Source of the DNA: a bacterium
GTDB taxonomy: Bacteria; Actinomycetota; Coriobacteriia; Coriobacteriales; CADBOM01
Assembly (NCBI GenBank): GCA_024698685.1
Contig: JAILQZ010000002.1
Span: 4,366 to 68,365, forward strand
Reading direction: 5' to 3'
Length of the DNA: 64,000 nucleotides
The position numbers were made by a program, and so were the translations under genes. Under the pieces are notes generated by a model. The model had not been told where the DNA came from and made no database searches. It was given only the letters and a program-made list of their open reading frames with translations. The first letter of the stretch is position 1. Every line of letters starts with the position of its first letter. Below, piece by piece: positions 10,224 to 63,888 of this stretch.

Positions 10224-12469
<2,246 letters not shown>

Positions 12470-12583
12470 CTGCGTTCCTGTGGTCGGTACCATCGTTGGC
12501 GGGCCATGCGGTCAACGCCGCGTAAGACCTGCGAAGAACATTCTACATGGATTGGGGGCGCAGCGGGTACACCTATCAGGCGG

Positions 12584-42969: not shown

Positions 42970-42977
42970 GGGCGCCA

Positions 42978-45870: not shown

Positions 45871-45882
45871 AGGGAAGTTGAA

Positions 45883-48652: not shown

Positions 48653-50049
48653 GCGGCAAGGCCAAAGCCGCCGCTATCCCGCGCATCATGATCTCTGCGG
48701 GCGCCAGTGGATCCGGCAAGACGACGATAACCTCCGGGCTGCTGCGATGCCTTTCGAACAAGGGCATCGCCACCATCGCCTACAAGTGCGGCCCCGACTA
48801 CATCGACCCGATGTTCCACAAGACTGTCCTCGGCATTCCCTGCCGCAATCTCGACCTCTTCTTCTCCGACGAGAGCGAGGTGCGCACGCTGATGGCCGAA
48901 AGCTCCAGCGGCTACAGCGTGGCCGTGGTCGAGGGCGTCATGGGATTCTACGACGGCCTCGGCGGATCGGATACGCAGGCTTCGGCCTACCATGTGGCGC
49001 GCACGACCGGCACCCCTGTCATCCTGGTAGTCGACGGGCGCGGAGTCTCGTTGACGCTGGCCGCGACGATCAAGGGGCTCATCGGCTTCCGCGAGGGCAG
49101 CAACATCGCCGCCGTCATCATCAACCGCTGCTCCAAAGCGCTCTTCGAGCACCTCAGGCCGATCATCGAGAGCGAGTGCGGCGTCAAGGCGCTCGGATAC
49201 GTCGAGAACAGTCCCGAGATGGCTCTGGAAAGCCGGCATCTCGGCCTCGTCACCGCAGGCGAGGTCGATGACCTGCAGGCGCGCATCGACGCGATAGCGA
49301 GCCGCCTCGAGGTCTCGATCGACTTCGACGCGCTGCTCGAGATAGCCCGCGGCGCAGAGCCGATCGATTTCGAACCCTCTTCCGTGGAGCCGCTGGCAAC
49401 GGCAGCGGAGGCGCCCTGCATCGCGGTGGCGAGAGACGATGCCTTCTGCTTCTACTACGAGGAGAGCCTCGAGCATCTGCGCAGGCTGGGGGCCAGAATC
49501 GTCCCCTTCTCCCCCATCGCGGACAACGAGCTTCCATCCGAGGCCGACGCGCTCTACATCGGAGGCGGCTACCCCGAGCTGCACGCCGAGGAGCTCTCCG
49601 GCAACTCGACGATGCTCGAGTCGATCAGGCGCGCGCACGGAGAGGGCATGCCGATCTTCGCCGAATGCGGGGGCTTCATGTATCTCAAAGAACGCATGGC
49701 CGACCTCGACGGACGCGAGTTCGAGATGGTCGGGGTCCTCAGCGGCGGGGCGCACTACACAGGCAAGCTCACGCGCTTCGGCTACGTCGACCTCGAGGCG
49801 AAAGCCGATGGCCTCGGCATCGCCAAGGGCAGCCACATGAGGGCGCACGAGTTCCACTATTACGACAGCGACGACAACGGCAGCGCGATGCATGCCTCCA
49901 AGCAGCACTCCAAGCGCAGCTGGGACTGCTGCATAGCAGAGAAGAGGCTGTTCGCGGGCTTTCCGCACCTCTACCTGCCGGCGTGCGACGAGTTCGCGCG
50001 CGGGTTCGTGAGCACCGCGATCGAATACAGGGCGGAGCGGCTCGGATAG
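48649..50049 (+). CDS. cbiA: Cobyrinate a,c-diamide synthase CbiA.
   Basis: 466 aa with GASGSGKTTITSGL and a C-terminal glutamine amidotransferase (FAECGGFMYL). Confidence 0.9.
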   Translation: MSGKAKAAAIPRIMISAGASGSGKTTITSGLLRCLSNKGIATIAYKCGPDYIDPMFHKTVLGIPCRNLDLFFSDESEVRTLMAESSSGYSVAVVEGVMGFYDGLGGSDTQASAYHVARTTGTPVILVVDGRGVSLTLAATIKGLIGFREGSNIAAVIINRCSKALFEHLRPIIESECGVKALGYVENSPEMALESRHLGLVTAGEVDDLQARIDAIASRLEVSIDFDALLEIARGAEPIDFEPSSVEPLATAAEAPCIAVARDDAFCFYYEESLEHLRRLGARIVPFSPIADNELPSEADALYIGGGYPELHAEELSGNSTMLESIRRAHGEGMPIFAECGGFMYLKERMADLDGREFEMVGVLSGGAHYTGKLTRFGYVDLEAKADGLGIAKGSHMRAHEFHYYDSDDNGSAMHASKQHSKRSWDCCIAEKRLFAGFPHLYLPACDEFARGFVSTAIEYRAERLG

Positions 50050-50089
50050 GCCGAGCGCTGACGCAAGCACCAAAAGGGCAAGGAGACGA

Positions 50090-51616
50090 ATGGGCAAGGC
50101 ACTGATGATACAGGGGACCACCTCCAACGCGGGCAAGAGCCTGACCGTTGCGGCGATCTGCCGCATCCTGGCGCAGGACGGCTACAGCGTCGCCCCCTTC
50201 AAGAGCCAGAACATGGCGCTCAACAGCTTCATCACGCACGAGGGTCTCGAGATGGGCCGCGCACAGGTGATGCAGGCAGAGGCGGCGGGCATCGAGCCGC
50301 TCGTCGCGATGAACCCTATCCTGCTCAAGCCGACCGGCGACACGGGCAGCCAGATCATCGTCAACGGCGAGGTCACGGGGAACATGAGCGCAACCGACTA
50401 CTTCGACTTCAGGCACACGCTGCGCCCGAAGGTCATGGAGGCGTTCGATTCGCTGGCCAGCACGCACGACTTCGTCATAATCGAGGGCGCGGGCTCGCCG
50501 GCGGAGATCAACCTCAAGAAGGACGACATCGTCAACATGGGCATGGCGAAGATGGCCAAGGCTCCCGTGCTGATCGTCGGCGACATCGACCGTGGCGGCG
50601 TCTTCGCGAGCCTTTACGGCACGGTAGCGCTGCTCGACGATGACGAACGTACGCTCGTGAAGGGAACGATCATCAACAAGTTCCGCGGCGACAAGACGCT
50701 GCTCGACCCCGGCCTCGTCATGCTCGAGGACCTCACCGGCGTTCCGTGCCTCGGCGTCATTCCCTACATGCACCTTGACATCGACGACGAGGACTCGCTA
50801 TCCGACCGCATCGCCGGCGGCCGAGTCGGAGATGGTCCGATCGACATCGCGGTAGTGCGCCTCTCGCACCTGTCGAACTTCACCGACACCAACCCGCTGT
50901 CGCGCTATCGCCAGCTCTCGGTGCGCTATGTCGACAGACCCGAGGACCTGCGCAGCCCCGACCTCATCATCCTGCCAGGCACCAAGAACACGATGGACGA
51001 CATGGATTGGCTAGTCTCGCGCGGGCTGGACGTGGCGATTCGCCGCAGGGCAGCGGAAGGCGCGCTCATCCTCGGGATCTGCGGAGGCTACCAGTTGCTT
51101 GGCGAACGCCTCGACGACCCCGAGGGCGTCGAGCACGGCGGCTCGATGGCGGGCCTCGGCCTCCTCCCGATGCGCACGGTCTTCACCTCCGACAAGCGCC
51201 GCACGCGCGTCGACGCGATCACCGGCGAATTCATCGGCGAATTCGCGCAGCTTTCGGGCAAGACTCTCACCGGATACGAGATCCACATGGGCGCAACCGT
51301 GCCGGTCAACGGCGAGTGGGCGGAAGGCGCCAGGCCCTTCGCGACGTTGACCGACGACAACGGCAACACCATGGTTGACGGTTGCGTCTGCGGCAACGTC
51401 ATCGGCAGCTACTGCCATGGCATGTTCGAGGACGGCAGCTTCGGGCAGGCGCTCGTCGGGATGCTGTGCGAGCGCAAGGGCGTCGCAGCGAGCGACTTCC
51501 CCATCGAGACCTTCAGGCGTTACAAGGACAGGCAGTACGACGAGCTCGCCGCCACTGTGCGCGAGAGCATAGACATGGAGCTTCTGATGAGGATCATCGA
51601 GGAGGGTGTGCGATGA
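50090..51616 (+). CDS. cobQ: Cobyric acid synthase CobQ/CbiP.
   Basis: 508 aa, beginning MIQGTTSNAGKSLTVAAICR, with GICGGYQLLG. Confidence 0.95.
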   Translation: MGKALMIQGTTSNAGKSLTVAAICRILAQDGYSVAPFKSQNMALNSFITHEGLEMGRAQVMQAEAAGIEPLVAMNPILLKPTGDTGSQIIVNGEVTGNMSATDYFDFRHTLRPKVMEAFDSLASTHDFVIIEGAGSPAEINLKKDDIVNMGMAKMAKAPVLIVGDIDRGGVFASLYGTVALLDDDERTLVKGTIINKFRGDKTLLDPGLVMLEDLTGVPCLGVIPYMHLDIDDEDSLSDRIAGGRVGDGPIDIAVVRLSHLSNFTDTNPLSRYRQLSVRYVDRPEDLRSPDLIILPGTKNTMDDMDWLVSRGLDVAIRRRAAEGALILGICGGYQLLGERLDDPEGVEHGGSMAGLGLLPMRTVFTSDKRRTRVDAITGEFIGEFAQLSGKTLTGYEIHMGATVPVNGEWAEGARPFATLTDDNGNTMVDGCVCGNVIGSYCHGMFEDGSFGQALVGMLCERKGVAASDFPIETFRRYKDRQYDELAATVRESIDMELLMRIIEEGVR

Positions 51617-52143
51617 GCGAGGATGCCAAGAGGGGCCTCGTCCACCTCTACTCCGGGGACGGCAAGGGCAAGACGACCGCAGCTATGGGCTTGGCGGCCA
51701 GGGCTGCAGGCAGCGGAAAGCACGTGGTGATCGCGGAGTTCCTCAAGGGCGACCGCTCCTGCGAGCTCAACACGCTGCGACTCAGCGACAACGTCGAGGT
51801 CATGAAGGCCGACTGCCCCGTCAAGTTCTCCTTCCGGATGACCGACGAGGAGAGGGAGCGCACCAGGCTCGCGAACGACGAGCTGCTCGCGCGTCTCGCG
51901 CAGTGCGATTGCGACCTCATCGTGGCCGACGAGGCCATCAACGCCTACAGGCTCGACCTCATCGACCGCCAGGCGCTCAAGGACTTCGTCGTCAACAAGC
52001 CCGAGGGCACGGAGCTCGTGCTCACCGGCCGCCAGCCAGACGAGTTCTTCATCGAGCACGCGGACTACGCAACGGAGATGGTGTGCCGCAAGCATCCATA
52101 CCGAGAGCAGGGAATCAAGGCAAGAAAGGGTATCGAATTCTGA
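51613..52143 (+). CDS. cobO: Cob(I)yrinic acid a,c-diamide adenosyltransferase (CobO/BtuR type).
   Basis: Starts MSEDAKRGLVHLYSGDGKGKTTAAMG (ATGA overlap with cobQ). Confidence 0.85.
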   Translation: MSEDAKRGLVHLYSGDGKGKTTAAMGLAARAAGSGKHVVIAEFLKGDRSCELNTLRLSDNVEVMKADCPVKFSFRMTDEERERTRLANDELLARLAQCDCDLIVADEAINAYRLDLIDRQALKDFVVNKPEGTELVLTGRQPDEFFIEHADYATEMVCRKHPYREQGIKARKGIEF

Positions 52144-52787
52144 TGGCAACTATCGAACAGGTGCTTCCGAACGAGATCGAGAAGCGCAGCATGCAAATCA
52201 TCGGCGAGGAGCTCGCCGAGATGGGAATCGAGCTCGACCCGCGCAACGAGGCGGTCATAAAGCGGGTGATCCACACCTCCGCCGACTTCGACTACGCCAC
52301 CAGCCTCGCCTTCTCCGAGGGCGCGGTGGACGCCGGCGTGGCGGCACTCAAGCGCGGAGCCACCATCGTCACCGACACCAAGATGGCATGGTCGGGAATC
52401 AGCAAGCCCGCGTTGGCCAAGCTAGGCGCCGACGCGCAGTGCTACATGAGCGACCCAGACATCGCGCAGGCCGCCAAGGACAATGGCACGACCCGCGCTG
52501 TGGCTTGCATGAACAAGGCCGCAAGGCTCGAAGGCGACGTCATCATCGCTGTCGGCAACGCGCCAACCGCGCTCATCGAGCTGGACAAGCTGATCAAAGA
52601 TGGTAGAATCTCCCCCGCTCTGGTTATCGGCGTGCCAGTCGGCTTCGTCAACGTGGTCGCCAGCAAGGAGATCATCATGGAATCCGGCGTGCCCTACATC
52701 GTCGCGAAGGGGCGCAAGGGCGGAAGCAACATCGCAGCAGCGATCTGCAACGCCATGTTGTATGAGGCAACGAGGCGCGAGCTCTAG
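52143..52787 (+). CDS. cbiC: Cobalt-precorrin-8 methylmutase CbiC.
   Basis: Starts MATIEQVLPNEIEKRSMQII, with the motif VGNAPTAL. Confidence 0.9.
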   Translation: MATIEQVLPNEIEKRSMQIIGEELAEMGIELDPRNEAVIKRVIHTSADFDYATSLAFSEGAVDAGVAALKRGATIVTDTKMAWSGISKPALAKLGADAQCYMSDPDIAQAAKDNGTTRAVACMNKAARLEGDVIIAVGNAPTALIELDKLIKDGRISPALVIGVPVGFVNVVASKEIIMESGVPYIVAKGRKGGSNIAAAICNAMLYEATRREL

Positions 52788-52805
52788 GCATTGGAAGGAA
52801 GCGTC

Positions 52806-53837
52806 GTGAAGGACACTAAAGCAAGGCGCAAGACGAGATGGACGATGTCGTTCATCATACTCGGAGTGCTCCTGATAGTCTTCATGATCCTCAACATCGT
52901 CAAGGGCAGCGTCGACGTGCCCTTCTCCGACGTCATCGCGATCTTCTCAGGCGGTGACGCCAACGAGGTATCGCGGCAGATCGTGCTCTCGATGCGCATG
53001 CCGCGCGCTCTGGCCGCGGTGCTGCTCGGCGGCGCGCTAGCCCTCTCGGGCTACCTGCTGCAGACCTTCTTCCACAACCCGCTGGCCGGCCCGTTCGTCC
53101 TGGGAATCTCCTCGGGCGCAAAGCTGATCGTCGCCATCACGATGGTCTTCTTCCTCGGGTTCGGCATCAAGATGGGCTCGATCGCGATGATCGTCGCGGC
53201 GTTCATCGGCTCGATGATCGCGATGGGCTTCGTGCTGCTGATATCCAAGCGCGTCAACAACATGTCGATGCTGATCGTCGCCGGCATCATGGTCGGCTAC
53301 ATCTGCTCGGCCATCACCGAGTTCATCGTCACATTCGCTGACGACTCCGATATCGTCAACCTGCACAACTGGTCGCTGGGAAGCTTCTCGGGCACCACAT
53401 GGGACAACGTCGGCGTGATGGCGGTCATCGTCATCATCACCACGATCTTCGTCTTCCTGCTCTCCAAGCCGATCTCGGCCTACCAGCTCAGCGAGACATA
53501 CGCGGCCAACATGGGCGTCAACGTCAAGGCCTTCCGCGCGATCCTCGTCCTTCTCTCCAGCCTGCTCTCCGCCTGCGTAACCGCATTCGCCGGCCCGATC
53601 TCGTTTGTCGGAATCGCGGTGCCCCAGATAGTCAAGAACCTGTTCAAATCGTCGAAGCCGCTGCTGATGATACCCGCCTGCTTCGTGGGAGGAGGGGTCT
53701 TCTGCCTCCTCTGCGACCTGCTGGCGCGCATCGCTTTCGCACCCACCGAGCTATCGATCTCGACGGTAACCGCGGTCTTCGGCGCGCCGGTCGTCATCGC
53801 GGTCATGCTCCGCAGGCGCGCTGGGAAGATGGACTGA
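52806..53837 (+). CDS. FecCD/BtuC-family ABC permease (corrinoid/siderophore/heme type).
   Basis: The ORF runs 52791..53837 and begins with TTG. I prefer the GTG at 52806, which follows GGAAGGAAG. It carries the motif RMPRALAAVLLGGALALSGYLLQTFFHNPLAGPFVLGISSGA. Confidence 0.85.
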   Translation: MKDTKARRKTRWTMSFIILGVLLIVFMILNIVKGSVDVPFSDVIAIFSGGDANEVSRQIVLSMRMPRALAAVLLGGALALSGYLLQTFFHNPLAGPFVLGISSGAKLIVAITMVFFLGFGIKMGSIAMIVAAFIGSMIAMGFVLLISKRVNNMSMLIVAGIMVGYICSAITEFIVTFADDSDIVNLHNWSLGSFSGTTWDNVGVMAVIVIITTIFVFLLSKPISAYQLSETYAANMGVNVKAFRAILVLLSSLLSACVTAFAGPISFVGIAVPQIVKNLFKSSKPLLMIPACFVGGGVFCLLCDLLARIAFAPTELSISTVTAVFGAPVVIAVMLRRRAGKMD

Positions 53838-53847
53838 GGTGGTGGCG

Positions 53848-55005
53848 ATGGCTCAGGGCGCAGCTCCTCACGACAAGTACTACTTCACCGCCGAGAAGAT
53901 GACCGTCGGCTACGATGGCGTGCCCTTGATCGAGAACATCGACATCGAGATCGCAAAGGGCGAGATCCTCACGCTCATCGGGCCCAACGGCGCAGGCAAG
54001 TCGACGATTCTCAAGACGATTACCAAGCAGCTCTCGCTGCTCGGCGGCGCTGTCTACCTCAACGGCGAGGACATCCACAAGGTCAATCAGAAGGAGCTCG
54101 CGAAGCAGATCGCGGTCATGCTCACCGAGCGCATCCGCCCCGAGCTCATGACCTGCGAGGACGTCGTCGGAACGGGTCGCTATCCCTACACGGGCAGTCT
54201 GGGCCTGCTCACGGAGGAGGATGAGGCGGTCGTCAAGCGGACGATGGAGCTCGTGCGCATCTCCGAACTGGCCGATCGCGACTTCATGGCGATCAGCGAT
54301 GGCCAGCGCCAGCGCGTCATGCTCGCCAGGGCGATCTGCCAGGAGCCCGAGCTCATGATCCTCGACGAGCCCACCTCCTTCCTCGACATACGCTACAAGC
54401 TCGAGTTTCTCAACATCCTGCAGGAGATGTCGCGCAAGCAGGGAATGACCGTCGTGATGTCGCTGCACGAGCTCGACCTCGCCGAGCGTATCAGCGACAA
54501 GATCCTCTGCGTGCGTGGCAAGACCATCGACCGCTTCGGCACCCCCGACGAGGTCTTCGAGCCCGGATACATCGACAGCCTCTACGAGCTCACCGTCGGC
54601 TCCTACGATGCGTCATCGGGTCGCGTTGAGCTGCCGCGCATCGAGGGCGAGCCGGAGGTATTCGTCATCTCCGGCAACGGCACGGGCACCAGCTTCTTCA
54701 GGCAGCTGCAGCGTCTCTCCGTCCCCTTCGCCACCGGCATCCTCTCGCAAAACGACATCGATTATCCGGTCGCCTCGGTGCTGGCCGCCAACGTGATATC
54801 GGTTCCGGCATTCACCTTCTTCGGCGAGGGCGAGCTCGCGCAGGCGCGCGCGCAGATCGATTCCTGCGGCTGCGTCGTCATAACGCTAGGCAGCGAGGCT
54901 ACGATCCCGCATGAGCTGAACTCGCTGCTCGAATACGCAGCCGGCATTGGCAAGCAGGTCCTCTCCCCCGGCGAATACCTGGCGCAAAGGGCCGCCCAAG
55001 CCTGA
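53848..55005 (+). CDS. FecE/BtuD-family ABC ATPase with a ~125-aa C-terminal extra domain.
   Basis: The ORF runs 53839..55005 and begins with GTG. I prefer the ATG at 53848, which follows GAGGTG. It has Walker A GPNGAGKST and the signature ISDGQRQRVMLARA. Residues after about 262 (EPEVFVISGNGTGTSFF...) lie beyond a normal ABC cassette. Confidence 0.85.
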   Translation: MAQGAAPHDKYYFTAEKMTVGYDGVPLIENIDIEIAKGEILTLIGPNGAGKSTILKTITKQLSLLGGAVYLNGEDIHKVNQKELAKQIAVMLTERIRPELMTCEDVVGTGRYPYTGSLGLLTEEDEAVVKRTMELVRISELADRDFMAISDGQRQRVMLARAICQEPELMILDEPTSFLDIRYKLEFLNILQEMSRKQGMTVVMSLHELDLAERISDKILCVRGKTIDRFGTPDEVFEPGYIDSLYELTVGSYDASSGRVELPRIEGEPEVFVISGNGTGTSFFRQLQRLSVPFATGILSQNDIDYPVASVLAANVISVPAFTFFGEGELAQARAQIDSCGCVVITLGSEATIPHELNSLLEYAAGIGKQVLSPGEYLAQRAAQA

Positions 55006-55161: not shown

Positions 55162-56049
55162 ATGAGCTATGCTCAGAGCCCGAAGGTCAAGTATCCCGAC
55201 GATTACCTGGTTTCACCCGATGCTGAATGGGAGCTCGTCGCCCATACGGACGATTGCATCGTGCTCGAGGGCATAAACTTCGTCGGAGACGAGCTATGGC
55301 TCCTCGACACCGGCCGCGGTCGCATCCTCAAGGTCGAGGGCGACAAGATCGTCGTCGCGCTCCAGAGCGAGAAGGGAATGCCCAACGGAATGAGGCCGCT
55401 CGATGACCACACGATCCTTGTGGCCGACCGCATCCTGGGGCTATGCACCTACGACACCATCACCGGCGAATACGTGGTTCGCTGCACGGGTCTGCCAGAC
55501 GCCCCGTTCATCCACATCGACGACCTCGTGCTAGATGGGCGCGGCGGCGCATACATCACCGACCCCGGCGGCAGCAACTACATCAACCCGTTCGGCCGCG
55601 TATTCTACGTCCGCTACGGCGACGGCAGCTGGGAGTGCGAGGAGTTCCTCAAAGGCATCGCGTTCCCTAACGGAATCACGCTCTCGCCCGACGGGATCTT
55701 CGTCTACATCGCCGAATTCAGTTCCAACACGATCATCGCCGCTCCCTCGAAGCTCTACGACGACGACAAGGAGGCACCCTATGCATTCGCGCGCCTCGTC
55801 GGAGGCATCGGCCCCGACGGGCTCATCACGGACACGCAGGGCAACATCTACGCGGCGCATCTGCACGCAGGCGAGGTCGTGGCCTTCGACAAGAAGGGCT
55901 GGCCGATCGCGGAGATCCGACTCCCCGAATGCGCTGGCGTCGTGAACACCAACCTCTGCATCCACGATGGATACCTCTACACGTGCGAGCTCGAGAAGGG
56001 CGACGTGTGGCGCATCCCGATCAAGGCGGAGCAGCACCAGCTCTCGTAG
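55162..56049 (+). CDS. SMP-30/gluconolactonase/LRE-family beta-propeller protein.
   Basis: 295 aa with the motifs PNGMRPLDD, DDLVLDGRGGAYITD, FPNGITLSPDG and GPDGLITDTQGN. Confidence 0.7.
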   Translation: MSYAQSPKVKYPDDYLVSPDAEWELVAHTDDCIVLEGINFVGDELWLLDTGRGRILKVEGDKIVVALQSEKGMPNGMRPLDDHTILVADRILGLCTYDTITGEYVVRCTGLPDAPFIHIDDLVLDGRGGAYITDPGGSNYINPFGRVFYVRYGDGSWECEEFLKGIAFPNGITLSPDGIFVYIAEFSSNTIIAAPSKLYDDDKEAPYAFARLVGGIGPDGLITDTQGNIYAAHLHAGEVVAFDKKGWPIAEIRLPECAGVVNTNLCIHDGYLYTCELEKGDVWRIPIKAEQHQLS

Positions 56050-56264: not shown

Positions 56265-56480
56265 ATGGCTAGATGGAACGCGCCCACGGGCGCGGGCTGT
56301 TCGAAAGGGCAGCAAGGGGAATGCGGGTGAGAGTCCCGCGCTATACCAGTAACCGTAAGGCTTTGCATCAAGATCCTCTAAGCGATGCAGACGAAGTCGG
56401 AATGCCTTTCCATCGAAAACTTTGTTGCCCTGGATGGCTTTGCGCTCGAATGAATCCTCCAGGAAAAGTTGGCTCCAATG
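56265..56480 (+). promoter_or_regulatory. Cobalamin (B12) riboswitch. Boundaries are approximate.
   Basis: The core is AAGGGGAATGCGGGTGAGAGTCCCGCGCTATACCAGTAACCGTAAGG (about 56313-56360). This compares with the consensus GGGAA..GGTG.A.ATCC...C.GT.CCCGCAACCGTAA. A B12-box-like GAAGTCGGAATGCC lies at 56393-56406. The element sits about 110-320 nt upstream of the cbiK-like gene. Confidence 0.75.
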
Positions 56481-56587
56481 ATGCAGGCGCGACCATGCCC
56501 GGCGCGTTTGCATTTAGGCTGAAGGGTGCGCCCTGAAGCCGGGCAGATTGTCAGCCGGGCAAAAAGAAAAGGAAACGGAGAAAGAAT

Positions 56588-57469
56588 ATGAAGAAGCTAC
56601 TTGTTGCAATCACTGTCGTGGCTGCCCTGTGCGCTGGAATGATCGCAGGTTGCTCCGGCAGCAAGGCCGAGCCGGATCCCACCAAGGAGATCCTGGTCGT
56701 GAGCTTCGGCACCAGCTTCGCCGATAACCGCGAGGAGACCATCGGCGCAGTCGAGAGCGCGATCCAGGAGGCGTTCCCGGAGTGGACCGTCGCTCGCGCG
56801 TTCACCGCTCAGATCATCATCGACAAGGTTGCCAAGGAGGAGGGCGTCGAGATCGATAACTTCGAGCAGGCACTCCAGAGGGCACATGACAACGGCGTCA
56901 CCACGCTCGTCATCCAGCCTACCCACCTGATGCATGGCCTCGAGTACACCGATGTCAAGAACACCCTCGCCCAGTATGAGGACCAGTTCGAGACGGTCGT
57001 CCTGGCAGAGCCGCTGCTCTCCAGCGATGAGGACTTCGAGGCAGTCGCGAAGGCCATCACCGACGCAACCAAGGACAGCGACAACGGCACCACCGCCCTC
57101 GTCTTCATGGGCCATGGCACCGAGGCCGACTCCAACGCAGTCTATGCTAAGATGCAGGGCGTCCTGACCGCTGATGGCTTCGCCAACTACTATGTCGGCA
57201 CCGTCGAGGCAACCCCGTCCCTCGATGACGTCATCGCCGCAATCGACGGTAAGGGCTACACCGATGTCGTCCTCACCCCGCTCATGGTTGTCGCTGGCGA
57301 TCATGCCAACAACGACATGGCTGCTCAGGATGATCCCGAGTCCTGGTACAGCATCCTCACCGCCAAGGGCTATAACGTAACTGCCAATCTCACCGGCCTT
57401 GGCTCGCTCAAGCCGATCCAGGATCTCTACGTTCAGCACACCCAGGCTGCCATCGATAGCATTCAGTAA
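56588..57469 (+). CDS. cbiK: CbiK-type sirohydrochlorin cobaltochelatase homologue with a lipoprotein signal peptide (exported).
   Basis: 293 aa with the lipobox AGMIAGCSG. It is CbiK-like throughout (ILVVSFGTS, FMGHGTE, PLMVVAGDHANNDM). Both catalytic His positions are present. Confidence 0.85.
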   Translation: MKKLLVAITVVAALCAGMIAGCSGSKAEPDPTKEILVVSFGTSFADNREETIGAVESAIQEAFPEWTVARAFTAQIIIDKVAKEEGVEIDNFEQALQRAHDNGVTTLVIQPTHLMHGLEYTDVKNTLAQYEDQFETVVLAEPLLSSDEDFEAVAKAITDATKDSDNGTTALVFMGHGTEADSNAVYAKMQGVLTADGFANYYVGTVEATPSLDDVIAAIDGKGYTDVVLTPLMVVAGDHANNDMAAQDDPESWYSILTAKGYNVTANLTGLGSLKPIQDLYVQHTQAAIDSIQ

Positions 57470-57510
57470 GCGAGTGCAACGCATACGGCAAGCCTGCTAA
57501 TGCAGTCTTG

Positions 57511-57542
57511 GAGCCCCAGATGATTAGCTTCGTCTGGGGCTC
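57511..57542 (+). other. Intercistronic 10-bp-stem hairpin.
   Basis: gagccccaga (57511-57520) pairs with tctggggctc (57533-57542). There is no U-tract, so it is more likely a processing or stability element than a full terminator. Confidence 0.4.
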
Positions 57543-57566
57543 TGAGCACAGAAAGGGAGGTAGGCT

Positions 57567-58769
57567 TTGAAGAAGTTTCTGAGCATGGCGATGTCGCTGG
57601 CGCTCGCGCTCGCGATGTGCTTCGGCATCCCTGCGGCGATCGCCGATGACGGAGTTGCCGGCAGCGACGAGTATGGCGGTCGCGAGGCCGTCGCCAACGA
57701 TGGCATGATCCCCGTCTCGGGCGACCAGCTGCCCGATGGCACCTACAACATCGACGTCATCTCCGATTCCGGGATGTTCAACATCGTCAACTGCGTCCTC
57801 AAGGTGAAGGACGGCAACATGACCGCCACCGTGACGCTCTCCGGCGATGGCTACGACTTCCTCTACATGGGAACCGGCGAGGAGGCCGTCAAGGCCGGAA
57901 CCGCCGCATATTCGGGCTATAAGGAGAACTCGGACGGCAAGTACGAGTACACCGTCGAGGTCTCGGCCCTCAACGAGGGCATTCCCTGCGCGGCGTTCAG
58001 CCACCGCAAGCAGCAGTGGTACGACCACACAATCGTCTTCTCCCCCGCCAAGATCGACAAGGACATCCTGCCTGCAGGAACCTACTGCGCCGAGAGCACC
58101 GATCCATTCAACGGGGCCGGCTACATCGACCTCGAGGACGGTACCTACACGATGGATGTCGAGTTCGCGGGTGGAAGCGGCAAGGCATCGATCAACTCCC
58201 CGGCGAAGCTGACCGTCAAGGACAAGTGCGCCTCCGCCGAGCTCGAGTGGAGCAGCGATGGCTACGACTACCTGGTCGTCAACGGCTACAAGTACCCGAA
58301 GACCAATACCGAGGGCAACTCGAAGTTCGAGATCCCGGTGCTCTGCTACGACAAGCCGATGGACATCATCGGCGACACCACGAAGATGAGCACGCCGCAT
58401 GAGATCGACTACACCCTCACCTTCAAGAAGGACACCGCGAAGGCGGCTGGATCGCTTGGCGGCTCGACCCTGTGGATCATCATCGGCATCGTCGTCATCG
58501 CGGTCATCGTCGTCGCAGCGCTTCTCGTGAGAAAGAGCCGCAAGAAGAAGGCGAGCGACCTGCCGATGACTGCTGCTGCAGCTGAGGAAGCGGTAGAGGA
58601 AGCTGCCGCAGACGCAGCCGATGCCGTCGAAGCTGTCGAAGAGAAGGTCGAGGAGATCGCCGAGACTGCCGAAAACGCAGCTGCCGAGGCCGAAGAGGCC
58701 GCCGAAGAGGTTGCCGAGATCGCAACCGATGTCGCTGACGATGCGGCCGAGGCTATCGAGGAGAACTAG
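57567..58769 (+). CDS. Surface protein with a signal peptide, two tandem ~120-aa beta-rich domains, a single C-terminal TM anchor and an Ala/Glu-rich acidic cytoplasmic tail.
   Basis: 400 aa with a TTG start 6 nt after GAAAGGGAGG. The internal repeat is LPDGTYNIDV...LKVKDGNMTATVTLSGDGYDFLYMG against LEDGTYTMDV...LTVKDKCASAELEWSSDGYDYLVVNG. The TM helix is LWIIIGIVVIAVIVVAALLV, followed by RKSRKKK. Confidence 0.8.
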   Translation: MKKFLSMAMSLALALAMCFGIPAAIADDGVAGSDEYGGREAVANDGMIPVSGDQLPDGTYNIDVISDSGMFNIVNCVLKVKDGNMTATVTLSGDGYDFLYMGTGEEAVKAGTAAYSGYKENSDGKYEYTVEVSALNEGIPCAAFSHRKQQWYDHTIVFSPAKIDKDILPAGTYCAESTDPFNGAGYIDLEDGTYTMDVEFAGGSGKASINSPAKLTVKDKCASAELEWSSDGYDYLVVNGYKYPKTNTEGNSKFEIPVLCYDKPMDIIGDTTKMSTPHEIDYTLTFKKDTAKAAGSLGGSTLWIIIGIVVIAVIVVAALLVRKSRKKKASDLPMTAAAAEEAVEEAAADAADAVEAVEEKVEEIAETAENAAAEAEEAAEEVAEIATDVADDAAEAIEEN

Positions 58770-58772
58770 GCG

Positions 58773-59951
58773 ATGGCAAAGGTTATCACCAAGGCTTTGA
58801 GGCGCGTTGCCGTTGCGATGGCGTGCATCGCGCTCTCCGCCTTCGCGCTGGCTGGCTGCTCTGGGGACAAGAGCATCTCCCCCGAGAACGTCAGCTCCGA
58901 GTTGACGTACGACCACAGCATGGAGCTCAAGTATGCGAAGCTGTTCTCAGTCGACTACTACAACGACGGCTACAAGCTGATCACGCTCGATGGCGAAGGC
59001 AGCTATCTCGTCGTTCCTGAAGGCGCGGCCATCCCAGGCGATCTCTCGCCTGAGATAGTCGTTTTGCAGCAGCCGCTCGACCAGATCTACCTCGTCGCCT
59101 CATCCGCCTTCGATATGTTCAAGGCGATCGACGGCATCGACACGATCCACCTCTCCGGCACCAAGGTCAGCTCCTGGCACATCAAAGAGGCCGTCGACGC
59201 GATGAACTCAGGGAAGATCCTCTACGCGGGCAAGTACAACATCCCCGACTACGAGCTGATCCTCTCCGAAGGTTGCGACCTCGCGATCGAGTCGACGATG
59301 ATCTACCACACCCCCGAGGTAAAGGAGGCGATCGAGGGCTACGGCATCCCGGTATTCGTCGACATGTCGAGTTACGAGGATGAGCCGCTCGGCCGCTCCG
59401 AGTGGGTCAAGGTCTACGGCGCGATGCTGAACAAGGAGGCCGAGGCCGAGGCCGCCTTCGATGCGCAGGAGGCCATGTTCGACGCGGTGGCCGATGAGGT
59501 CGCCGGCACCAGCACGGGCAAAACCATCGCCTTCTTCTACATCACGACGAGCGGCGAGGTCAACGTGCGCAAGTCGACCGACTACGTGCCGAAGATGATC
59601 GCCCTTGCCGGCGGAGAATACGCCTTCTCCGACCTCGAGGGCGACCCCGATAGCAGGACGAGCAGTGTCACGATGCAGATGGAGGACTTCTACAACACCG
59701 CGAAGGACTGCGACATCCTGATCTACAACTCGACGATCACCGGCGAGGTCGATTCCATCGATGAGCTGCTCGGCCTGAGCAGCTTCATGGGCGAATTCAC
59801 CGCGGTGTCGACGGGCAACGTCTGGTGCACCTCGCAGAACATGTATCAGGAGTCGATGCAGCTGGGTTACTTCGTCAAGGACCTCCACACAATCCTCGTC
59901 AACCCAGATGCCTCCGACAGCGAACTCGTCTATCTGCGAAAGCTGCACTAA
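58773..59951 (+). CDS. ABC substrate-binding lipoprotein, BtuF/HmuT/FecB class.
   Basis: 392 aa with the lipobox ALAGCSG. Its layout is that of a class III periplasmic-binding protein (...LQQPLDQIYLVASSAFDMFKAIDGIDTI...). Confidence 0.7.
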   Translation: MAKVITKALRRVAVAMACIALSAFALAGCSGDKSISPENVSSELTYDHSMELKYAKLFSVDYYNDGYKLITLDGEGSYLVVPEGAAIPGDLSPEIVVLQQPLDQIYLVASSAFDMFKAIDGIDTIHLSGTKVSSWHIKEAVDAMNSGKILYAGKYNIPDYELILSEGCDLAIESTMIYHTPEVKEAIEGYGIPVFVDMSSYEDEPLGRSEWVKVYGAMLNKEAEAEAAFDAQEAMFDAVADEVAGTSTGKTIAFFYITTSGEVNVRKSTDYVPKMIALAGGEYAFSDLEGDPDSRTSSVTMQMEDFYNTAKDCDILIYNSTITGEVDSIDELLGLSSFMGEFTAVSTGNVWCTSQNMYQESMQLGYFVKDLHTILVNPDASDSELVYLRKLH

Positions 59952-60106: not shown

Positions 60107-60454
60107 CTACTTGCAGGTGTAGGGGCCGGGAACGAACAGAACCTGGTTGGGCTTCTTGTCCATCTCGACGATGAGCTCGTCAATCGGTCCGAACCTCATG
60201 ACGCCAGCGAGGCAGTGATGGACGCAGGTGGGAAGCTTGCCCTTGGCCTGACGGTCTGCGCAGAGGTCGCACAGCGAAGTCGGGGTTGGGATCTTGTTCC
60301 AGTTCATCGTCTTCTCGTCGATCTCCCAGGGACCCTCGTCGAGGACCCTGATGCCCCACTTGCCAACGCCGAAGCCATGCTCCTGCTTGCAGGCGATCTC
60401 GCAGGATTGGCAACCAGAGCAGAACTCGTAATCGATCAAAAGGCCGTTTCTCAT
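60107..60454 (-). CDS. Mini-ferredoxin subunit (two predicted [4Fe-4S] clusters) of the molybdopterin oxidoreductase.
   Basis: 115 aa. CSGCQSCEIAC together with CDLC...CVHHC gives 8 Cys in two cluster motifs. It lies 12 nt downstream of the catalytic-subunit gene, with an AGGAGG RBS. Confidence 0.8.
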   Translation of the reverse strand: MRNGLLIDYEFCSGCQSCEIACKQEHGFGVGKWGIRVLDEGPWEIDEKTMNWNKIPTPTSLCDLCADRQAKGKLPTCVHHCLAGVMRFGPIDELIVEMDKKPNQVLFVPGPYTCK

Positions 60455-60466
60455 TGCTAATCCTCC

Positions 60467-62755
60467 TTATTTGTTCAGCTTCTCGATCTTGCAGATGATG
60501 CACTTGAAGGGTGCGCCGAAGCCGAGCTTGCCGACGAACTTGTGTGGCATGAGGTTGTTGATGTTGCAGCGCCAGACTCCGTAGAGATGCGGCTCTTCAG
60601 CATCCTCCTCAGGGAACCAGAAGCCATGCTGGGCGTTTGCAAGGCCCTGCCTGACGACCGGAGTGATCTTGGCCTTGAGCTCGCATCTGCCGAACTCGTT
60701 CTCGACGTTGACCCACTCGCCATCGATGATGCCGAGCTTCTCGGCGTCCTTCGGATTGATCTCGATCCACGGATCGGGATTGAGCTCGCGGAGCAGCGGG
60801 ATCTGCTTGCCCTCGGAGTGGAAGTACGCATAGACGCGCGAACCAGTGGTGAGGACGAACGGATACTCCTCCATCAGCTCCGGAGTGGAGATCGGCGAAC
60901 GCTGCGGCTCCTCGTAGTAGGGCAGCGGATCCTCGCCGAACTGGGCGAACATCGTCGAGTAGAGCTCAACGCGGCCGGTCGGGGTGTTGAATCCCCTCTT
61001 GCGATCGGGACGCAGGAGGCCGAGCTCGTACTTCTTGTAGGTGACCTTGCGCTGGCGGGTGACCTCTTCCTTGAGCTCGTTGTAGTCGATGTTGTTGCCG
61101 AAGCGGAACTCCTCCATGAAGTCGTAGAGGGTCGGGAACTTGGCGTAGTTGTCGGGCATGATCCTGCGGCCGATCTCGTACTGGATCTCGAGGTCGCCCT
61201 TGGTCTCGCCAACCTGGACGGCGTTGACCACGGAACCGGTCATGTTCGGCGATGCGCCGTAGTGGACCGCGACGCCCGACTCCCTCTCGGCGAAGGTGGC
61301 CAGCGGGAGGATGACGTCCGCGCAGCACTGGATCGTCGGGGTGATCCAGCAGTCGGCGGCGAAGACGAAGTCGAGCTTCTGCATGGCGTCATGCCAGCGC
61401 TTGGGCTGTGCGGCGCAGGTTCCTGCGAGCAGGTTGGTGGATGCGATGAAGCCAGCGTGGATCTCATAGGGCTCGCCGGTCTCCATGGCCTCGAGCGTGA
61501 GGTCCGCATGCGAGTTGAGGACGATCGCGACGTAGGCCGGATACTCCTTGAGGCCGATGATCTTGTTCTGAAGCTCAGGACCGAGCGAGCTCCAGCCGAA
61601 ACCGAGGTCGGCCAGGGAGTCGGTCACGTCTCCGAGGAGCTGTCCGCCGGGGACGTCGAGGTTGCCGGTGAGGGCCTCGAGGGCGAGGATGCAGTGTCCA
61701 GCCTGCGCGCCGTTGGCCTTCTGGTCGATCGCGAGACCCCAGAGGATCGCCGCGTTCTGGGCGTTGGCGTACATGCGGGTGGCGCCGTAGATGTCCTCGA
61801 CGTCGATGCCGCAGATCTCGGCGGCTCTCTCGGGAGGCATCGTCGCGACGCGCTCCGCGAGCTGCTCGAATCCGTAGCAGTACAGGCTGACGAACTCCTC
61901 ATCGTAGAGCCCCTCGCTGATGATGATGTTGAGCATCGCCATGCCGAGCGCGGCATCGGTGCCGGGACGCAGCGGCAGGTGATAGACGGCGCGGGTGGCC
62001 AGCCAGTTGGTGCGCGGGTCGACCGAGATGAGCTTGGAACCGCGCTTCATGCAGTCGATGACGGAGTGTCCGAAGAATCCGTCGCCGTTGGAGGGCAGAG
62101 GCTCCTTGCCCCAGGTCATCATGACCTCGGGGATCTTGTACATCGGGTCATCATAGCGCCCCGGCAGACCGCCTGCATAGTCCATCTCGGGATAGGTTGC
62201 GCCGGTGACGAACGTCGCAGCGGCAACGCGCGGGATGTAGCATGCATAGCCCGACTGGGTGTAGCAGGAGTTGGGGGTTCCGAGCATAGCCTGCCCGTAG
62301 GGGCCGCACATCGGGCCGCCCTCGCGGCCGGTTCCTCCGAAGACGACGATGGACTCCGGGCCGTACTTCTCCTTGATGTCCTTGATGTTGGTCTCGATGA
62401 TCTCGTAGGCCTCGTCCCAGGTGATGCGCTCCCACTTGTTCTTGCCGCGATCCTCGAAGGCGCGCTTCATCGGGTAGATGACGCGATCGGGATGGTAGGT
62501 CATGTCCGGGAGGGTCAGGCACCTGACGCACAGGCGGCCCTGGGTGATGGGCTGGTTCTCATCGCCCTCGACCTTCTCCAGGATTCCATCCTCGTTCACG
62601 TAGAATTTGATGCCGCATCCAACAGGATGGCATCCGGGTGCGGACCATGCGCAACCGCGGGTGACGGTATATCCGTCCTCCTCGAACTGCCACGGCTTGT
62701 CGAGGTCGTTGTTGAAGGCCTCGATTCCGCTATCGATTTTCGGTCGTGTTGCCAT
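60467..62755 (-). CDS. Molybdopterin (bis-MGD, DMSO-reductase superfamily) oxidoreductase catalytic subunit with no Tat signal.
   Basis: The ORF runs 60467..63085. I chose the start at MATRPKIDSGIEAFNNDL (ATG 62755), preceded by GGAAAGAAAGG; upstream of that point the ORF overlaps the torD-like gene. The N-terminal Cys cluster is GCAWSAPGCHPVGCG...CVRC. The body is MopB-like. Confidence 0.85.
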   Translation of the reverse strand: MATRPKIDSGIEAFNNDLDKPWQFEEDGYTVTRGCAWSAPGCHPVGCGIKFYVNEDGILEKVEGDENQPITQGRLCVRCLTLPDMTYHPDRVIYPMKRAFEDRGKNKWERITWDEAYEIIETNIKDIKEKYGPESIVVFGGTGREGGPMCGPYGQAMLGTPNSCYTQSGYACYIPRVAAATFVTGATYPEMDYAGGLPGRYDDPMYKIPEVMMTWGKEPLPSNGDGFFGHSVIDCMKRGSKLISVDPRTNWLATRAVYHLPLRPGTDAALGMAMLNIIISEGLYDEEFVSLYCYGFEQLAERVATMPPERAAEICGIDVEDIYGATRMYANAQNAAILWGLAIDQKANGAQAGHCILALEALTGNLDVPGGQLLGDVTDSLADLGFGWSSLGPELQNKIIGLKEYPAYVAIVLNSHADLTLEAMETGEPYEIHAGFIASTNLLAGTCAAQPKRWHDAMQKLDFVFAADCWITPTIQCCADVILPLATFAERESGVAVHYGASPNMTGSVVNAVQVGETKGDLEIQYEIGRRIMPDNYAKFPTLYDFMEEFRFGNNIDYNELKEEVTRQRKVTYKKYELGLLRPDRKRGFNTPTGRVELYSTMFAQFGEDPLPYYEEPQRSPISTPELMEEYPFVLTTGSRVYAYFHSEGKQIPLLRELNPDPWIEINPKDAEKLGIIDGEWVNVENEFGRCELKAKITPVVRQGLANAQHGFWFPEEDAEEPHLYGVWRCNINNLMPHKFVGKLGFGAPFKCIICKIEKLNK

Positions 62756-62829
62756 AGCGTACCTTTCTTTCCTTTTCCATTTATATGCAGGCGTCCACCT
62801 GTGCAAACCTGCAGGCAGAGCGCCCTTTT

Positions 62830-63525
62830 TCACAACTCCAAAGCCTGCGAGATGCGATCTCTGTCGGCCTCCAGGACTGCCAGCGCGAGCTTTGCGAGCG
62901 CGCTGTAGAAGGCGGTCTCGGAGAATTGCTGGACGAGCTGGGCGAACTGCGGAACCCATGTGAGCATGTGAGCGTCGATGAAGTCCCTTTGCTCTCGCAG
63001 ATATCCCTCGGCCTTGCTCGGCTCGCCCTCGCGCACGGCCAGGATCTCCTGCCCGGTGAGGAACTGCATGAACTCGAGCTCGCACGCGATGTGGTCGTCG
63101 AAATCGATGCGAGTTTTGGTTGGGCGGAATCCGTAGGCGTTGTAGGTGGCGGTAACATCGAGGGTGCTCTCTTGAAGCAGGCTGCCGTTGCGCGAGACGT
63201 AGACCGACTCGTAGGGAACCGCAGCCCTCGGCCCCTTGGGCCTGTTCTTGTCGTTGGGATCCGGAGGGTATCCGATGAACGATATGACGTAGTCGATCGC
63301 AAGATTGGACTTGGTGCGATCGTTCGCCTCATCGAGGTATGCCCTCATCTCGGCATAGGAAGCGTCGATAGCCTCGTTGCCCGATGGCTCGGGAACGGGG
63401 CTATCGATCAGATCCTTGAGAAGCGGCGCGTCGATTTCCAGCCTGAACAGGCGCGAGAGCATTGCATAGTCCTCGTACCTTTCCTGAAGAAGCTCCTCGG
63501 AAAGCATCCTGTCCAGGCTCGACAT
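62830..63525 (-). CDS. TorD/DmsD-family cofactor-insertion chaperone.
   Basis: 231 aa. The motifs YAMLSRLFRLEID and DHIACELEFMQFL are typical of TorD-like chaperones. Confidence 0.75.
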   Translation of the reverse strand: MSSLDRMLSEELLQERYEDYAMLSRLFRLEIDAPLLKDLIDSPVPEPSGNEAIDASYAEMRAYLDEANDRTKSNLAIDYVISFIGYPPDPNDKNRPKGPRAAVPYESVYVSRNGSLLQESTLDVTATYNAYGFRPTKTRIDFDDHIACELEFMQFLTGQEILAVREGEPSKAEGYLREQRDFIDAHMLTWVPQFAQLVQQFSETAFYSALAKLALAVLEADRDRISQALEL

Positions 63526-63540
63526 CGCTAGTATCGCCGC

Positions 63541-63888
63541 CTAGCCGTAGTGATAGGGCTGGGGAACGAAGAGAACCTGGTTGGGCTTGAGTTCAAGCTC
63601 CTTGGCCAGCTCCTCGACCGTTCCATACTGCATGACGCCAGCCAGGCAATGATGCACGCAGAAAGGCTGCTTGCCCTTGGACGTCCTGTCTTCGCAGAGG
63701 TCGCAAAGACGCGTGGGAACCGGGATCTTGTTCCAGTTGTACTTGCCGTCGGAGCACTTCCAGGGGCCGTCGTCGAGAAGGCGGATGCCCCACTGGCCTA
63801 CCGGGATGCCGTGCTCTTCCTTGCAGGCTACCTCACAAGATTGGCAACCGGTGCAGAACTCGTAATCGATCAGAAGTCCGTATGCCAT
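63541..63888 (-). CDS. Mini-ferredoxin subunit, paralogue of 60107..60454.
   Basis: 115 aa, beginning MAYGLLIDYEFCTGCQSCEVACKEEHG. It has the same length and Cys pattern as the first copy. Confidence 0.8.
   Translation of the reverse strand: MAYGLLIDYEFCTGCQSCEVACKEEHGIPVGQWGIRLLDDGPWKCSDGKYNWNKIPVPTRLCDLCEDRTSKGKQPFCVHHCLAGVMQYGTVEELAKELELKPNQVLFVPQPYHYG

Follow-up and report, generated by a model that had tools for sequence, protein, structure and literature searches.

A cobalamin riboswitch-linked cassette of an exported CbiK-family lipoprotein, a tandem NEAT-fold surface protein and a class III binding lipoprotein: a candidate relay for corrinoid uptake in bacteria without an outer membrane

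We examined a 64-kb stretch of DNA from a member of the Coriobacteriales (contig JAILQZ010000002.1; hereafter the window, whose own positions are used below unless another locus is named), in which a cobalamin riboswitch is followed on the same strand by three closely spaced genes. They encode an exported member of the CbiK family, a protein of 400 amino acids (aa) that we call NEAT2, and a class III substrate-binding lipoprotein (Table 1). The riboswitch and cbiK are separated by 172 nucleotides (nt), cbiK and the NEAT2 gene by 97 nt, and the NEAT2 and binding protein genes by only 3 nt. The genes for a BtuC-like permease and a BtuD-like ATPase of the ATP-binding cassette (ABC) type form a separate transcription unit upstream of the riboswitch, at the tail of a cbi operon, after cobO and cbiC. 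An earlier note on this DNA had read the three products as a surface relay that captures corrinoids or other tetrapyrroles and feeds a BtuCD-like importer. We found that the cassette, that is, these genes together with the importer genes, is real and widespread, and that it is apparently undescribed.

Table 1. Positions in the window of the riboswitch, the cassette genes and the importer genes.
Feature	Position	Strand	Basis
BtuC-like FecCD permease	52791..53837	+	PF01032, E 2.3e-82
BtuD-like ABC ATPase	53839..55005	+	ABC_tran, E 1.2e-30
Cobalamin riboswitch aptamer, AdoCbl-II class	56298..56415	+	Rfam RF01689, 41.5 bits
Leader from aptamer to cbiK, with putative expression platform	56416..56587	+	sequence
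Exported CbiK-family class II chelatase lipoprotein, 293 aa	56588..57469	+	PF06180, E 2.5e-79
NEAT2, tandem NEAT-fold surface protein, 400 aa	57567..58769	+	sequence, model, Foldseek, hhalign
NEAT2, NEAT-fold domain 1 (residues 47-165)	57705..58061	+	pLDDT >90, invariant columns, hhalign
NEAT2, NEAT-fold domain 2 (residues 186-292)	58122..58442	+	sub-threshold Pfam NEAT match, Foldseek, invariant columns
NEAT2, C-terminal transmembrane anchor (residues 300-325)	58464..58541	+	sequence; modelled as helix
NEAT2, cytoplasmic Ala/Glu-rich tail (residues 326-400)	58542..58766	+	sequence, model
Class III (FecB/BtuF/IsdE-type) substrate-binding lipoprotein, 392 aa	58773..59951	+	PF01497 (Peripla_BP_2), E 5.9e-25

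The only Rfam match in the window at the gathering score was the AdoCbl-II aptamer RF01689 on the plus strand (41.5 bits against a gathering score of 36.5, E 1.6e-6). The leader had been described as B12-riboswitch-like, with RF00174 named for the check; it does contain a cobalamin riboswitch, but one of class RF01689 and not of RF00174. The same class was found just upstream of cbiK in three relatives from Coriobacteriia (L081, 44.2 bits; L082, 41.0 bits; L083, 37.1 bits). L081 and the window share almost the same aptamer core despite a NEAT2 identity of only 44%; the stem inserted into the aptamer differs between the two in sequence and length. A purine-rich ribosome-binding site, AAGGAAACGGAG, lies ahead of the cbiK ATG. 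A terminator scan found no intrinsic terminator in the leader, and the computed fold of the leader was not distinctive (z -1.05) and revealed no expression platform; the leader may act by translational control.

For the counts of conservation, riboswitches and neighbouring genes we used 80 sampled loci of about 20 kb each. RF00174 was found upstream of cbiK in all 11 loci put to Rfam (86-114 bits), a sequence profile built from these 11 detected the element in 67 of the 80 loci, and Rfam placed an RF01482 element upstream in L073. Eight loci in which the contig ends too near cbiK were set aside. Among the 72 with at least 500 nt of upstream sequence, 68 carry a same-strand riboswitch immediately upstream, at a median gap of 173 nt, which the gap in the window matches. 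The classical cobalamin element was also found in three further loci (L084-L086), so that the co-occurrence of NEAT2 homologues with B12 riboswitches, a check that the earlier note had asked for, was seen in 68 of the 72 informative loci and in six further ones. B12 riboswitches switch off genes for B12 synthesis, for cobalt and corrinoid transporters and for B12-independent isozymes. Because three aptamer classes (RF00174, RF01482 and RF01689) occupy the same position before orthologous genes, the arrangement points to selection on B12 control and not to the inheritance of one accidental sequence. We also considered a chance match to the riboswitch model and rejected it, given the elements at the same position in all 11 loci put to Rfam, in 68 of the 72 and in L081-L083.

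The product of the first gene is a lipoprotein homologue of CbiK, as had been predicted. It matched PF06180 with 266.7 bits, and its N-terminus, MKKLLVAITVVAALCAGMIAGC, carries the lipobox IAGC with Cys22. Its matches in the PDB were CbiK of Salmonella enterica (1qgo, 2.8e-43), FetB of Porphyromonas gingivalis (9b86, 1.1e-42) and the periplasmic CbiK of Desulfovibrio vulgaris (2xvx, 4e-30), and the alignment with FetB spans the full length of the window protein, signal peptide included. In the alignment with the Salmonella enzyme, H176, E207 and H239 fall within its conserved motifs FMGHG, VE and AGDHA, and we take their counterparts there to be the catalytic residues H145, E175 and H207. All 77 cassette homologues compared keep this His/Glu/His metal site unchanged, and nearly all of them start with a Sec signal or lipobox and continue with a long linker of low complexity. 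The window protein scored 219.9 bits with the NCBIfam equivalog for the biosynthetic cobaltochelatase (NF047852), short of its cutoff of 400. Because the signal peptides and linkers are conserved and the equivalog cutoff is missed, the window CbiK is, judged by its sequence, an exported protein with an intact metal site and not a cytoplasmic pathway enzyme. A miscalled start codon, behind which a cytoplasmic enzyme would be hidden, was rejected since signal peptides, linkers and gene fusions (see below) are all conserved.

NEAT2 begins with a predicted cleavable signal peptide (ending in IPAAIA, before DD), followed by two beta-rich domains, a hydrophobic helix, the sequence RKSRKKK and an acidic Ala/Glu-rich tail. 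These are the two tandem beta-rich domains and the C-terminal membrane anchor of the earlier note, to which the model adds the fold. In an AlphaFold2 model built with 79 homologues, the predicted local distance difference test score (pLDDT) exceeded 90 at residues ~47-160 and 190-290, and helices were modelled at residues 300-329 and 336-399. Foldseek matched the model to IsdB and IsdH chains that hold two NEAT domains (E 1e-7 to 1e-5) and to single NEAT domains (IsdX1, IsdX2-N5, Hbp2-N2, Hal, IsdA and Shp) with a template modelling (TM) score of ~0.65 on the target; by these matches both domains have the NEAT fold. Compared with hhalign, the two domains prove homologous (probability 97.8%, E 1.2e-12). 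The family is nonetheless remote from canonical NEAT proteins in sequence: the window protein stays below the gathering score of Pfam NEAT (PF05031; 20.2 against 32.8 bits, E 8.7e-4, residues 189-287, in domain 2 only), and sequence profiles of domain 1 and domain 2 retrieved no NEAT chain from the PDB even at E 10. Because these profile searches gave no NEAT chain, the link to NEAT rests on the fold, on the weak Pfam matches and on relatives that pass the Pfam threshold, such as protein P0243 (55 bits); many relatives carry a precomputed PF05031 label.

Invariant alignment columns mark S68, M70, F71, Y96, K148, W151 and Y152 in domain 1, and the conserved positions of domain 2 are a GGSG motif, Y233/Y235, M274, H278 and Y282. 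The last strand reads K148-x-x-x-Y152 in domain 1 and H278-x-x-x-Y282 in domain 2, conserved in at least 90-100% of sequences; we equated these motifs with the YxxxY of NEAT domains by strand position, not by residue-level superposition. The attachment of NEAT2 to the cell takes two forms. Of the 74 full-length homologues, 43 carry a lipobox at the N-terminus and 19 a membrane helix at the C-terminus; none combines them, which suggests that anchoring is under selection, by lipobox or by membrane helix and never by the two together. A sortase-like motif was found in the tail of 1 of the 74. Since each of the three products carries export and anchoring signals, in the window and across the family, all three are predicted to sit outside the membrane, as the earlier note had supposed.

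Some further observations concern NEAT2 and its relatives. In the window protein the cytoplasmic tail after the anchor is predicted to form a 70-aa Ala/Glu-rich helix; most relatives stop a few residues past the anchor. The NEAT2 gene of locus L060 (5833-6999) adjoins genes for an ABC-2 exporter and a two-component system, with no riboswitch. A second NEAT2-like gene (12346-12771) lies about 5.5 kb downstream of the cassette in the Eggerthellaceae locus L061. In L058, CbiK and NEAT2 are both lipoproteins. Giant relatives (P0241, 1965 aa; P0242, 1473 aa; P0249, 1605 aa; P0368, 2538 aa) have up to nine NEAT2-type stretches and almost no Pfam annotation. They recall multi-NEAT hemophores and may be multi-site surface or secreted scavengers.

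The third gene encodes a class III substrate-binding lipoprotein, again as predicted: to its Pfam match are added a lipobox (...FALAGC, Cys29) and a model (pLDDT 87) that Foldseek assigned to the class III fold. An extra beta region is modelled near its N-terminus, at residues ~45-100. The fold matches included BtuF of Vibrio cholerae, the heme binders ShuT, PhuT, BhuT and IsdE, and siderophore binders, all at about E 1e-9, and the protein had no match in NCBIfam. For the permease the best NCBIfam model was BtuC (NF003001, 208.6 bits against a cutoff of 334), and for the ATPase it was an archaeal corrinoid ABC transporter ATPase (PRK09536, 194.9 bits against a cutoff of 537, aligning residues 19-349); neither protein reached an equivalog cutoff. 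The permease gene is contiguous with the cassette in more than 60 related loci and in L081 and L083, and the ATPase gene follows it in the same conserved order. The BtuCD-like importer that the relay had been supposed to feed thus belongs to the unit, and across loci a FecCD permease, an ABC ATPase and a class III binding protein occur together in a B12-regulated unit. The BtuD-like ATPase has a conserved C-terminal extension of ~130 aa (residues ~260-388), seen also in L083 (3714-4871) and L086 (13234-14334). Its orthologues are labelled PF27219 (MJ0874), and the extension could be a regulatory or ligand-sensing domain.

NEAT2 is not rare. More than 3,600 relatives were found among 8,000 scored candidates from a protein collection clustered at 90%, and 2,626 among 50%-identity representatives, 980 of them at E 1e-30 or better. 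When one genome per species was scanned, at least 579 genomes encoded a NEAT2 relative. The hosts of the cassette are mostly Lachnospiraceae, Ruminococcus, Oscillospiraceae and other Clostridia, together with Eggerthellaceae, and cultured carriers include Ruminococcus flavefaciens 007c, Enterocloster lavalensis, [Clostridium] asparagiforme DSM 15981 and Brotonthovivens ammoniilytica. The earlier note had framed the system as one of Coriobacteriia; it is present there, but it is mainly a feature of Clostridia and not specific to Coriobacteriia. In public databases the cassette proteins are named 'hypothetical protein', 'ABC transporter substrate-binding protein' or 'iron complex transport system substrate-binding protein'.

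Searches with the window proteins (tblastn) showed the order CbiK, NEAT2, binding protein, FecCD permease and ABC ATPase, on one strand, in nearly every one of the 80 loci that was long enough, and independent gene calls with Pfam labels agreed with this order. In Coriobacteriia (the window, L081 and L083) it is rotated to permease, ATPase, riboswitch, CbiK, NEAT2 and binding protein. Several neighbours in this order also occur as single polypeptides. CbiK and NEAT2 are fused as one lipoprotein in L073 (5025-6671, 548 aa) and in P0298, and NEAT2 is fused to the binding protein in L051 (5986-7848, 620 aa), L070 (5866-7818, 650 aa), P0248, P0258 and P0272. Of the best 150 cluster representatives, about 16, with lengths of 640-780 aa, resemble the latter fusion, and tandem CbiK-CbiK lipoproteins of 583 and 585 aa are encoded in L020 (4065-5816) and L062 (4017-5774), respectively. 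The natural fusions join partners of the cassette and are evidence that its proteins work together.

To survey the neighbourhood, we compared 225 same-strand open reading frames (ORFs) from the flanks of the 80 loci with Pfam, in two halves. The commonest families were those of cobamide synthesis and salvage: CobQ/CbiA-type amidotransferases (18 ORFs), CbiC (7), CobT (6), CbiD (5) and tetrapyrrole methylases (at least 5), with CbiB, the CobD aminotransferase, CbiJ and CobU also present. Heme oxygenase, sortase, Fur and CbiM/CbiQ were not among the 25 commonest flank families in either half, nor were IsdG-type genes among the common neighbours of the 80 loci. The homologues are therefore not confined to heme or iron loci, as they would have to be under a condition that the earlier note had named as refuting its reading; their flanks are cbi and cob genes. 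The cassette heads a ring-synthesis operon in L085 and ends one in L086 and in the window, where the order is cbiD, methylase, cbiG, methylase, cbiJ, cbiET, cbiA, cbiP, cobO and cbiC. The cbi clusters beside the cassette (window 42870-52787; L085 15807-20527) encode only two ring methylases besides CbiE/T, the missing one probably being cbiL. We found neither a cytoplasmic cbiK or cbiX nor a CbiM/Q cobalt transporter in the window or the sampled flanks. From loci of about 20 kb, we considered that the window lipoprotein might be the sole cobaltochelatase of its genome. The cbi clusters nearby are short of a ring methylase too, so that the genes for the early steps, one for a cytoplasmic chelatase among them, probably lie elsewhere in the genome. 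At the junction of the cassette and the ring genes in L085 (13259-15154), an ABC ATPase and CbiD were called as one product of 631 aa, which is either a real fusion or a gene-calling artefact.

What, then, does the cassette do? On balance we consider it probable, though well short of assured, that it is a B12-repressed cell-surface relay for corrinoid uptake, built from the parts of a heme relay; in this reading we infer the ligand, which way it is handed on and what the chelatase homologue does. The relay of the earlier note is thus the best explanation that we have. It is based on the riboswitch, the export signals, the folds, the gene order, the fusions and the cobamide genes nearby, and it is favoured because riboswitch-controlled type II importers with a class III binding protein import corrinoids where tested. 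In Clostridioides difficile, deletion showed that a riboswitch-btuFCD locus imports cobamides and cobinamide (bioRxiv 10.1101/772582).

Such a relay would serve a host without an outer membrane, and its substrates would be corrinoids, both cobamides and incomplete precursors such as cobinamide and cobyric acid. At low intracellular cobalamin the riboswitch would allow expression of the operon, and the three proteins would be held at the outside of the membrane, each on a lipid anchor or a C-terminal helix. NEAT2 would be the outer receptor and would hold the cobalt tetrapyrrole in its two beta-sandwich pockets, in which the conserved K/HxxxY, Met and Tyr residues are candidate ligand contacts. 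The ligand would then be handed to the class III lipoprotein, which would dock on the type II ABC importer of the BtuC/BtuD type. Beside NEAT2, the exported CbiK might be an extra tetrapyrrole-binding station, or an enzyme that inserts metal into an incomplete tetrapyrrole.

The system looks like a heme relay of the Isd/Hbp type re-used for the B12 regulon, and its NEAT domains and binding protein appear to descend from such relays. In the relays of Staphylococcus aureus (IsdB/IsdH/IsdA/IsdC to IsdE to IsdF) and Listeria (Hbp2 with Lmo2184), as in the cassette, tandem NEAT-fold proteins at the surface precede a binding lipoprotein of class III and an importer of the FecCD/ABC type. The Isd/Hbp systems are controlled by Fur and iron, whereas the cassette is under a B12 riboswitch. 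The cassette also differs in that its surface protein is anchored by a lipobox or a C-terminal helix and not by sortase, in that KxxxY and HxxxY would stand in place of the iron-ligand motif YxxxY of Isd proteins (a correspondence by strand position), in having a CbiK chelatase as an added partner, and in having cobamide genes as neighbours. A precedent for the re-use of heme machinery is found in Bacteroides, in which Hmu-like operons lie behind B12 riboswitches (PMC10100974). These Hmu-like/BtuS loci resemble the cassette in combining heme-type machinery and an exported chelatase homologue behind a cobalamin riboswitch (PMC10100974, PMC6460266), and the role of the BtuS chelatase is as unexplained as that of the cassette CbiK; they differ in that the chelatase is CobN-like, the receptors are TonB-dependent and the phylum is another.

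The logic of capture at the surface ahead of the transporter is that of BtuG, BtuH and BtuJ of Bacteroides, which are surface lipoproteins of B12-riboswitch loci that bind cobamides (PMC13616437). These proteins feed the outer-membrane receptor BtuB, whereas the host of the cassette has no outer membrane, and in NEAT2 we detected no homology to them (for BtuJ, DUF4465); its Pfam matches were only weak ones to NEAT and DUF4446, and its fold matches were to NEAT. The cassette would work like an Isd relay and like BtuG/H/J capture and is a member of neither, lacking the sortase and iron-regulation features of the one and, judged by strand position, its YxxxY motif, and lacking homology to the other. 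A bolder version of the corrinoid reading holds that the NEAT fold has a large corrinoid-binding sister branch, that the cassette is the Gram-positive counterpart of BtuG/H/J, and that the exported CbiK carries out extracytoplasmic cobalt-tetrapyrrole chemistry; to this version we give slightly less than even weight.

Several points weigh against a corrinoid uptake relay. The fold search with the binding protein does not separate binders of B12, heme and siderophores. By sequence profile its nearest solved relatives are of the Isd type, namely Lmo2184 (6.9e-9), presumably the binding protein of the Listeria NEAT/srtB locus, and IsdE (0.018); BtuF was not matched in this profile search of the PDB. 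The NEAT domains characterised so far are, to our knowledge, all binders of heme or hemoglobin. The invariance of the chelatase site of CbiK is left unexplained by a passive relay. The cassettes of L009, L051 and L052 have no detectable riboswitch, also at permissive thresholds, and the NEAT2 gene of L060 stands alone, with no cassette. The hosts appear to be cobamide producers, given the cbi operons nearby, so that uptake is not obviously essential for them. Finally, in L058 (4437-12095) a riboswitch, cbiK and the NEAT2 gene stand immediately ahead of cbiD, a methylase, cbiG/H and cbiJ, with no binding protein or permease within 6 kb. This locus ties the CbiK-NEAT2 pair to synthesis and not to import; because the pair precedes ring genes there without a transporter, it can evidently travel with synthesis genes alone.

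The invariant metal site of the exported CbiK is where the likeliest alternative takes its start. The exported CbiK would load Co(II) onto a tetrapyrrole outside the cell, and NEAT2 would catch the product, which the binding protein and the ABC importer would bring in. The substrate might be sirohydrochlorin or a porphyrin-type macrocycle of the anoxic gut, and the product might serve as a source of cobalt or, as cobalt-sirohydrochlorin, enter the anaerobic B12 pathway. We regard this as unlikely. It would give a reason for the metal site that has not changed in 77 of 77 homologues, and it fits the place of the cassette within or beside ring-synthesis operons, at their head in L058 and L085, as well as the absence of CbiM/Q and of a cytoplasmic cbiK or cbiX from the window and flanks. 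B12 riboswitches commonly control cobalt importers. The cell, though, would have to export an oxygen-labile intermediate or rely on foreign macrocycles; the adjacent cbi clusters lack a ring methylase (probably cbiL) as well as a chelatase, and the early genes are probably outside the sampled DNA; and the frequent late-step and salvage neighbours (CobT, CobU, CbiB and CobQ) fit the salvage of corrinoids better.

Relatives of the exported CbiK in other bacteria bear on the same alternative. FetB of P. gingivalis, its closest exported relative, inserts cobalt and manganese into porphyrin in vitro, and Mn-protoporphyrin at the surface of the cell depends on it (PMC13065792). FetB, also named IhtB, is a surface CbiK lipoprotein encoded with the receptor IhtA and with IhtC/D/E, and this Iht system shares with the cassette the class III binding protein along with the FecCD permease and the ATPase (PMC12094164). 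The receptor of Iht is a TonB-dependent barrel of the outer membrane, whereas that of the cassette would be a NEAT-fold protein in a host without such a membrane. Iht is discussed as a system for heme and iron with no mention of a B12 riboswitch (PMC12094164), and its physiological substrate is also unsettled. The periplasmic CbiK of D. vulgaris is likewise an exported family member with the chelatase fold, and it binds metalated porphyrins (PMC13065792); it differs from the cassette protein in being soluble in the periplasm of a host with an outer membrane, with no NEAT partner known.

A simpler alternative is that the cassette is an ordinary riboswitch-controlled BtuFCD importer, in which CbiK and NEAT2 are passengers with envelope or storage roles, or CbiK is biosynthetic. 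The BtuFCD systems of E. coli and C. difficile do share with the cassette the type II importer, the class III binding protein and the cobalamin riboswitch, and C. difficile imports corrinoids with btuFCD alone (bioRxiv 10.1101/772582). In the window, moreover, the importer genes belong to another transcription unit. The cbiK gene is part of the B12 regulon of many bacteria. Such an importer would, however, leave the gene order kept over more than 80 loci and the fusions of CbiK to NEAT2 and of NEAT2 to the binding protein without a cause. The export signals and long low-complexity linkers rule out a cytoplasmic CbiK, and the selected anchoring of NEAT2, by lipobox or membrane helix, does not suit a passenger. 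We therefore think this alternative improbable. Compared with BtuFCD, the binding protein of the cassette is ~120 aa longer, with its extra N-terminal beta region, and two additional exported partners are conserved.

That the cassette is an Isd/Iht-type system for heme or porphyrin under B12 control, in which CbiK would remove or exchange the metal as proposed for IhtB, seems to us the least probable of the readings considered: the NEAT fold of NEAT2, the Isd-type solved relatives of the binding protein, the similarity of CbiK to FetB/IhtB and the effect of the CobN-like BtuS of B12-type loci on heme-iron use in Bacteroides fragilis (PMC6460266) speak for it, whereas three classes of B12 riboswitch precede 68 of 72 loci, the neighbours are cobamide-synthesis genes with no heme oxygenase, sortase B or Fur-type genes among the common ones, sortase signals are not a feature of the NEAT2 family, Lys in domain 1 and His in domain 2 would take the place of the heme-iron tyrosine of NEAT domains, and FetB showed no reverse chelatase activity on hemin (PMC13065792).

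If the corrinoid uptake relay is the right reading, the cassette is new as a NEAT-type surface relay that was recruited to the B12 regulon and joined to an exported chelatase. A full-text search, which did not cover subscription journals, so that an earlier description is possible, found no paper that joins NEAT domains with cobalamin, cobamides or riboswitches, and none on an exported CbiK in a Gram-positive btu locus. The earlier note knew of no surface corrinoid capture described for Coriobacteriia or other monoderm actinobacteria, and a 2026 review calls extracellular cobamide capture in Gram-positive bacteria 'entirely uncharacterized' (PMC13616437).

Other genes of the window were also noted. 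An SMP-30/gluconolactonase-like gene (PF08450, E 2.1e-21) lies at 55162-56049, between btuD and the riboswitch; it is also present in the closest relative, L083 (5026-5913), is absent at that place in L081 and has no evident link to the cassette. Just upstream of cbiD, an ORF of 365 aa (41872-42969) has a zinc-ribbon-like CxxC...CxxC N-terminus and no Pfam match at 1e-5. Downstream of the binding protein, on the minus strand, is an oxidoreductase cluster (60107-63888), judged by eye from translations only, with a large molybdopterin oxidoreductase (60467-63085), a TorD-like chaperone (62830-63525) and two 4Fe-4S ferredoxin-like proteins (60107-60454 and 63541-63888). We take this cluster to be typical of the respiratory reductase clusters of the Eggerthellaceae type.

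Cobamides are a contested resource of the gut, and the machinery for their capture is known in detail only for Bacteroidota. Carried by hundreds of species (Lachnospiraceae, Ruminococcus, Oscillospiraceae and Coriobacteriia), the cassette is a testable candidate for such machinery. Many 'CbiK' genes of gut Firmicutes encode exported proteins, and counting them as biosynthetic cobaltochelatases could mislead predictions of which bacteria produce B12; for such predictions it also matters that the early steps from cbiK to cbiL are encoded elsewhere or missing. In at least two phyla, importers of tetrapyrroles come with exported homologues of chelatases (FetB/IhtB and BtuS in Bacteroidota, and perhaps the periplasmic CbiK of D. 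vulgaris), a puzzle into which the cassette offers a way, and their link to B12 riboswitches is documented only for loci of the BtuS type. Corrinoid binding by NEAT2, if it holds, would extend a textbook heme-binding fold to further ligands. If the bolder version is true, part of the acquisition or synthesis of cobamides in abundant gut Clostridia would occur at the cell surface, where the exported CbiK would insert metal into an incomplete or foreign macrocycle ahead of import. The cassette bears on how the dominant Gram-positive bacteria of the gut compete for cobamides.

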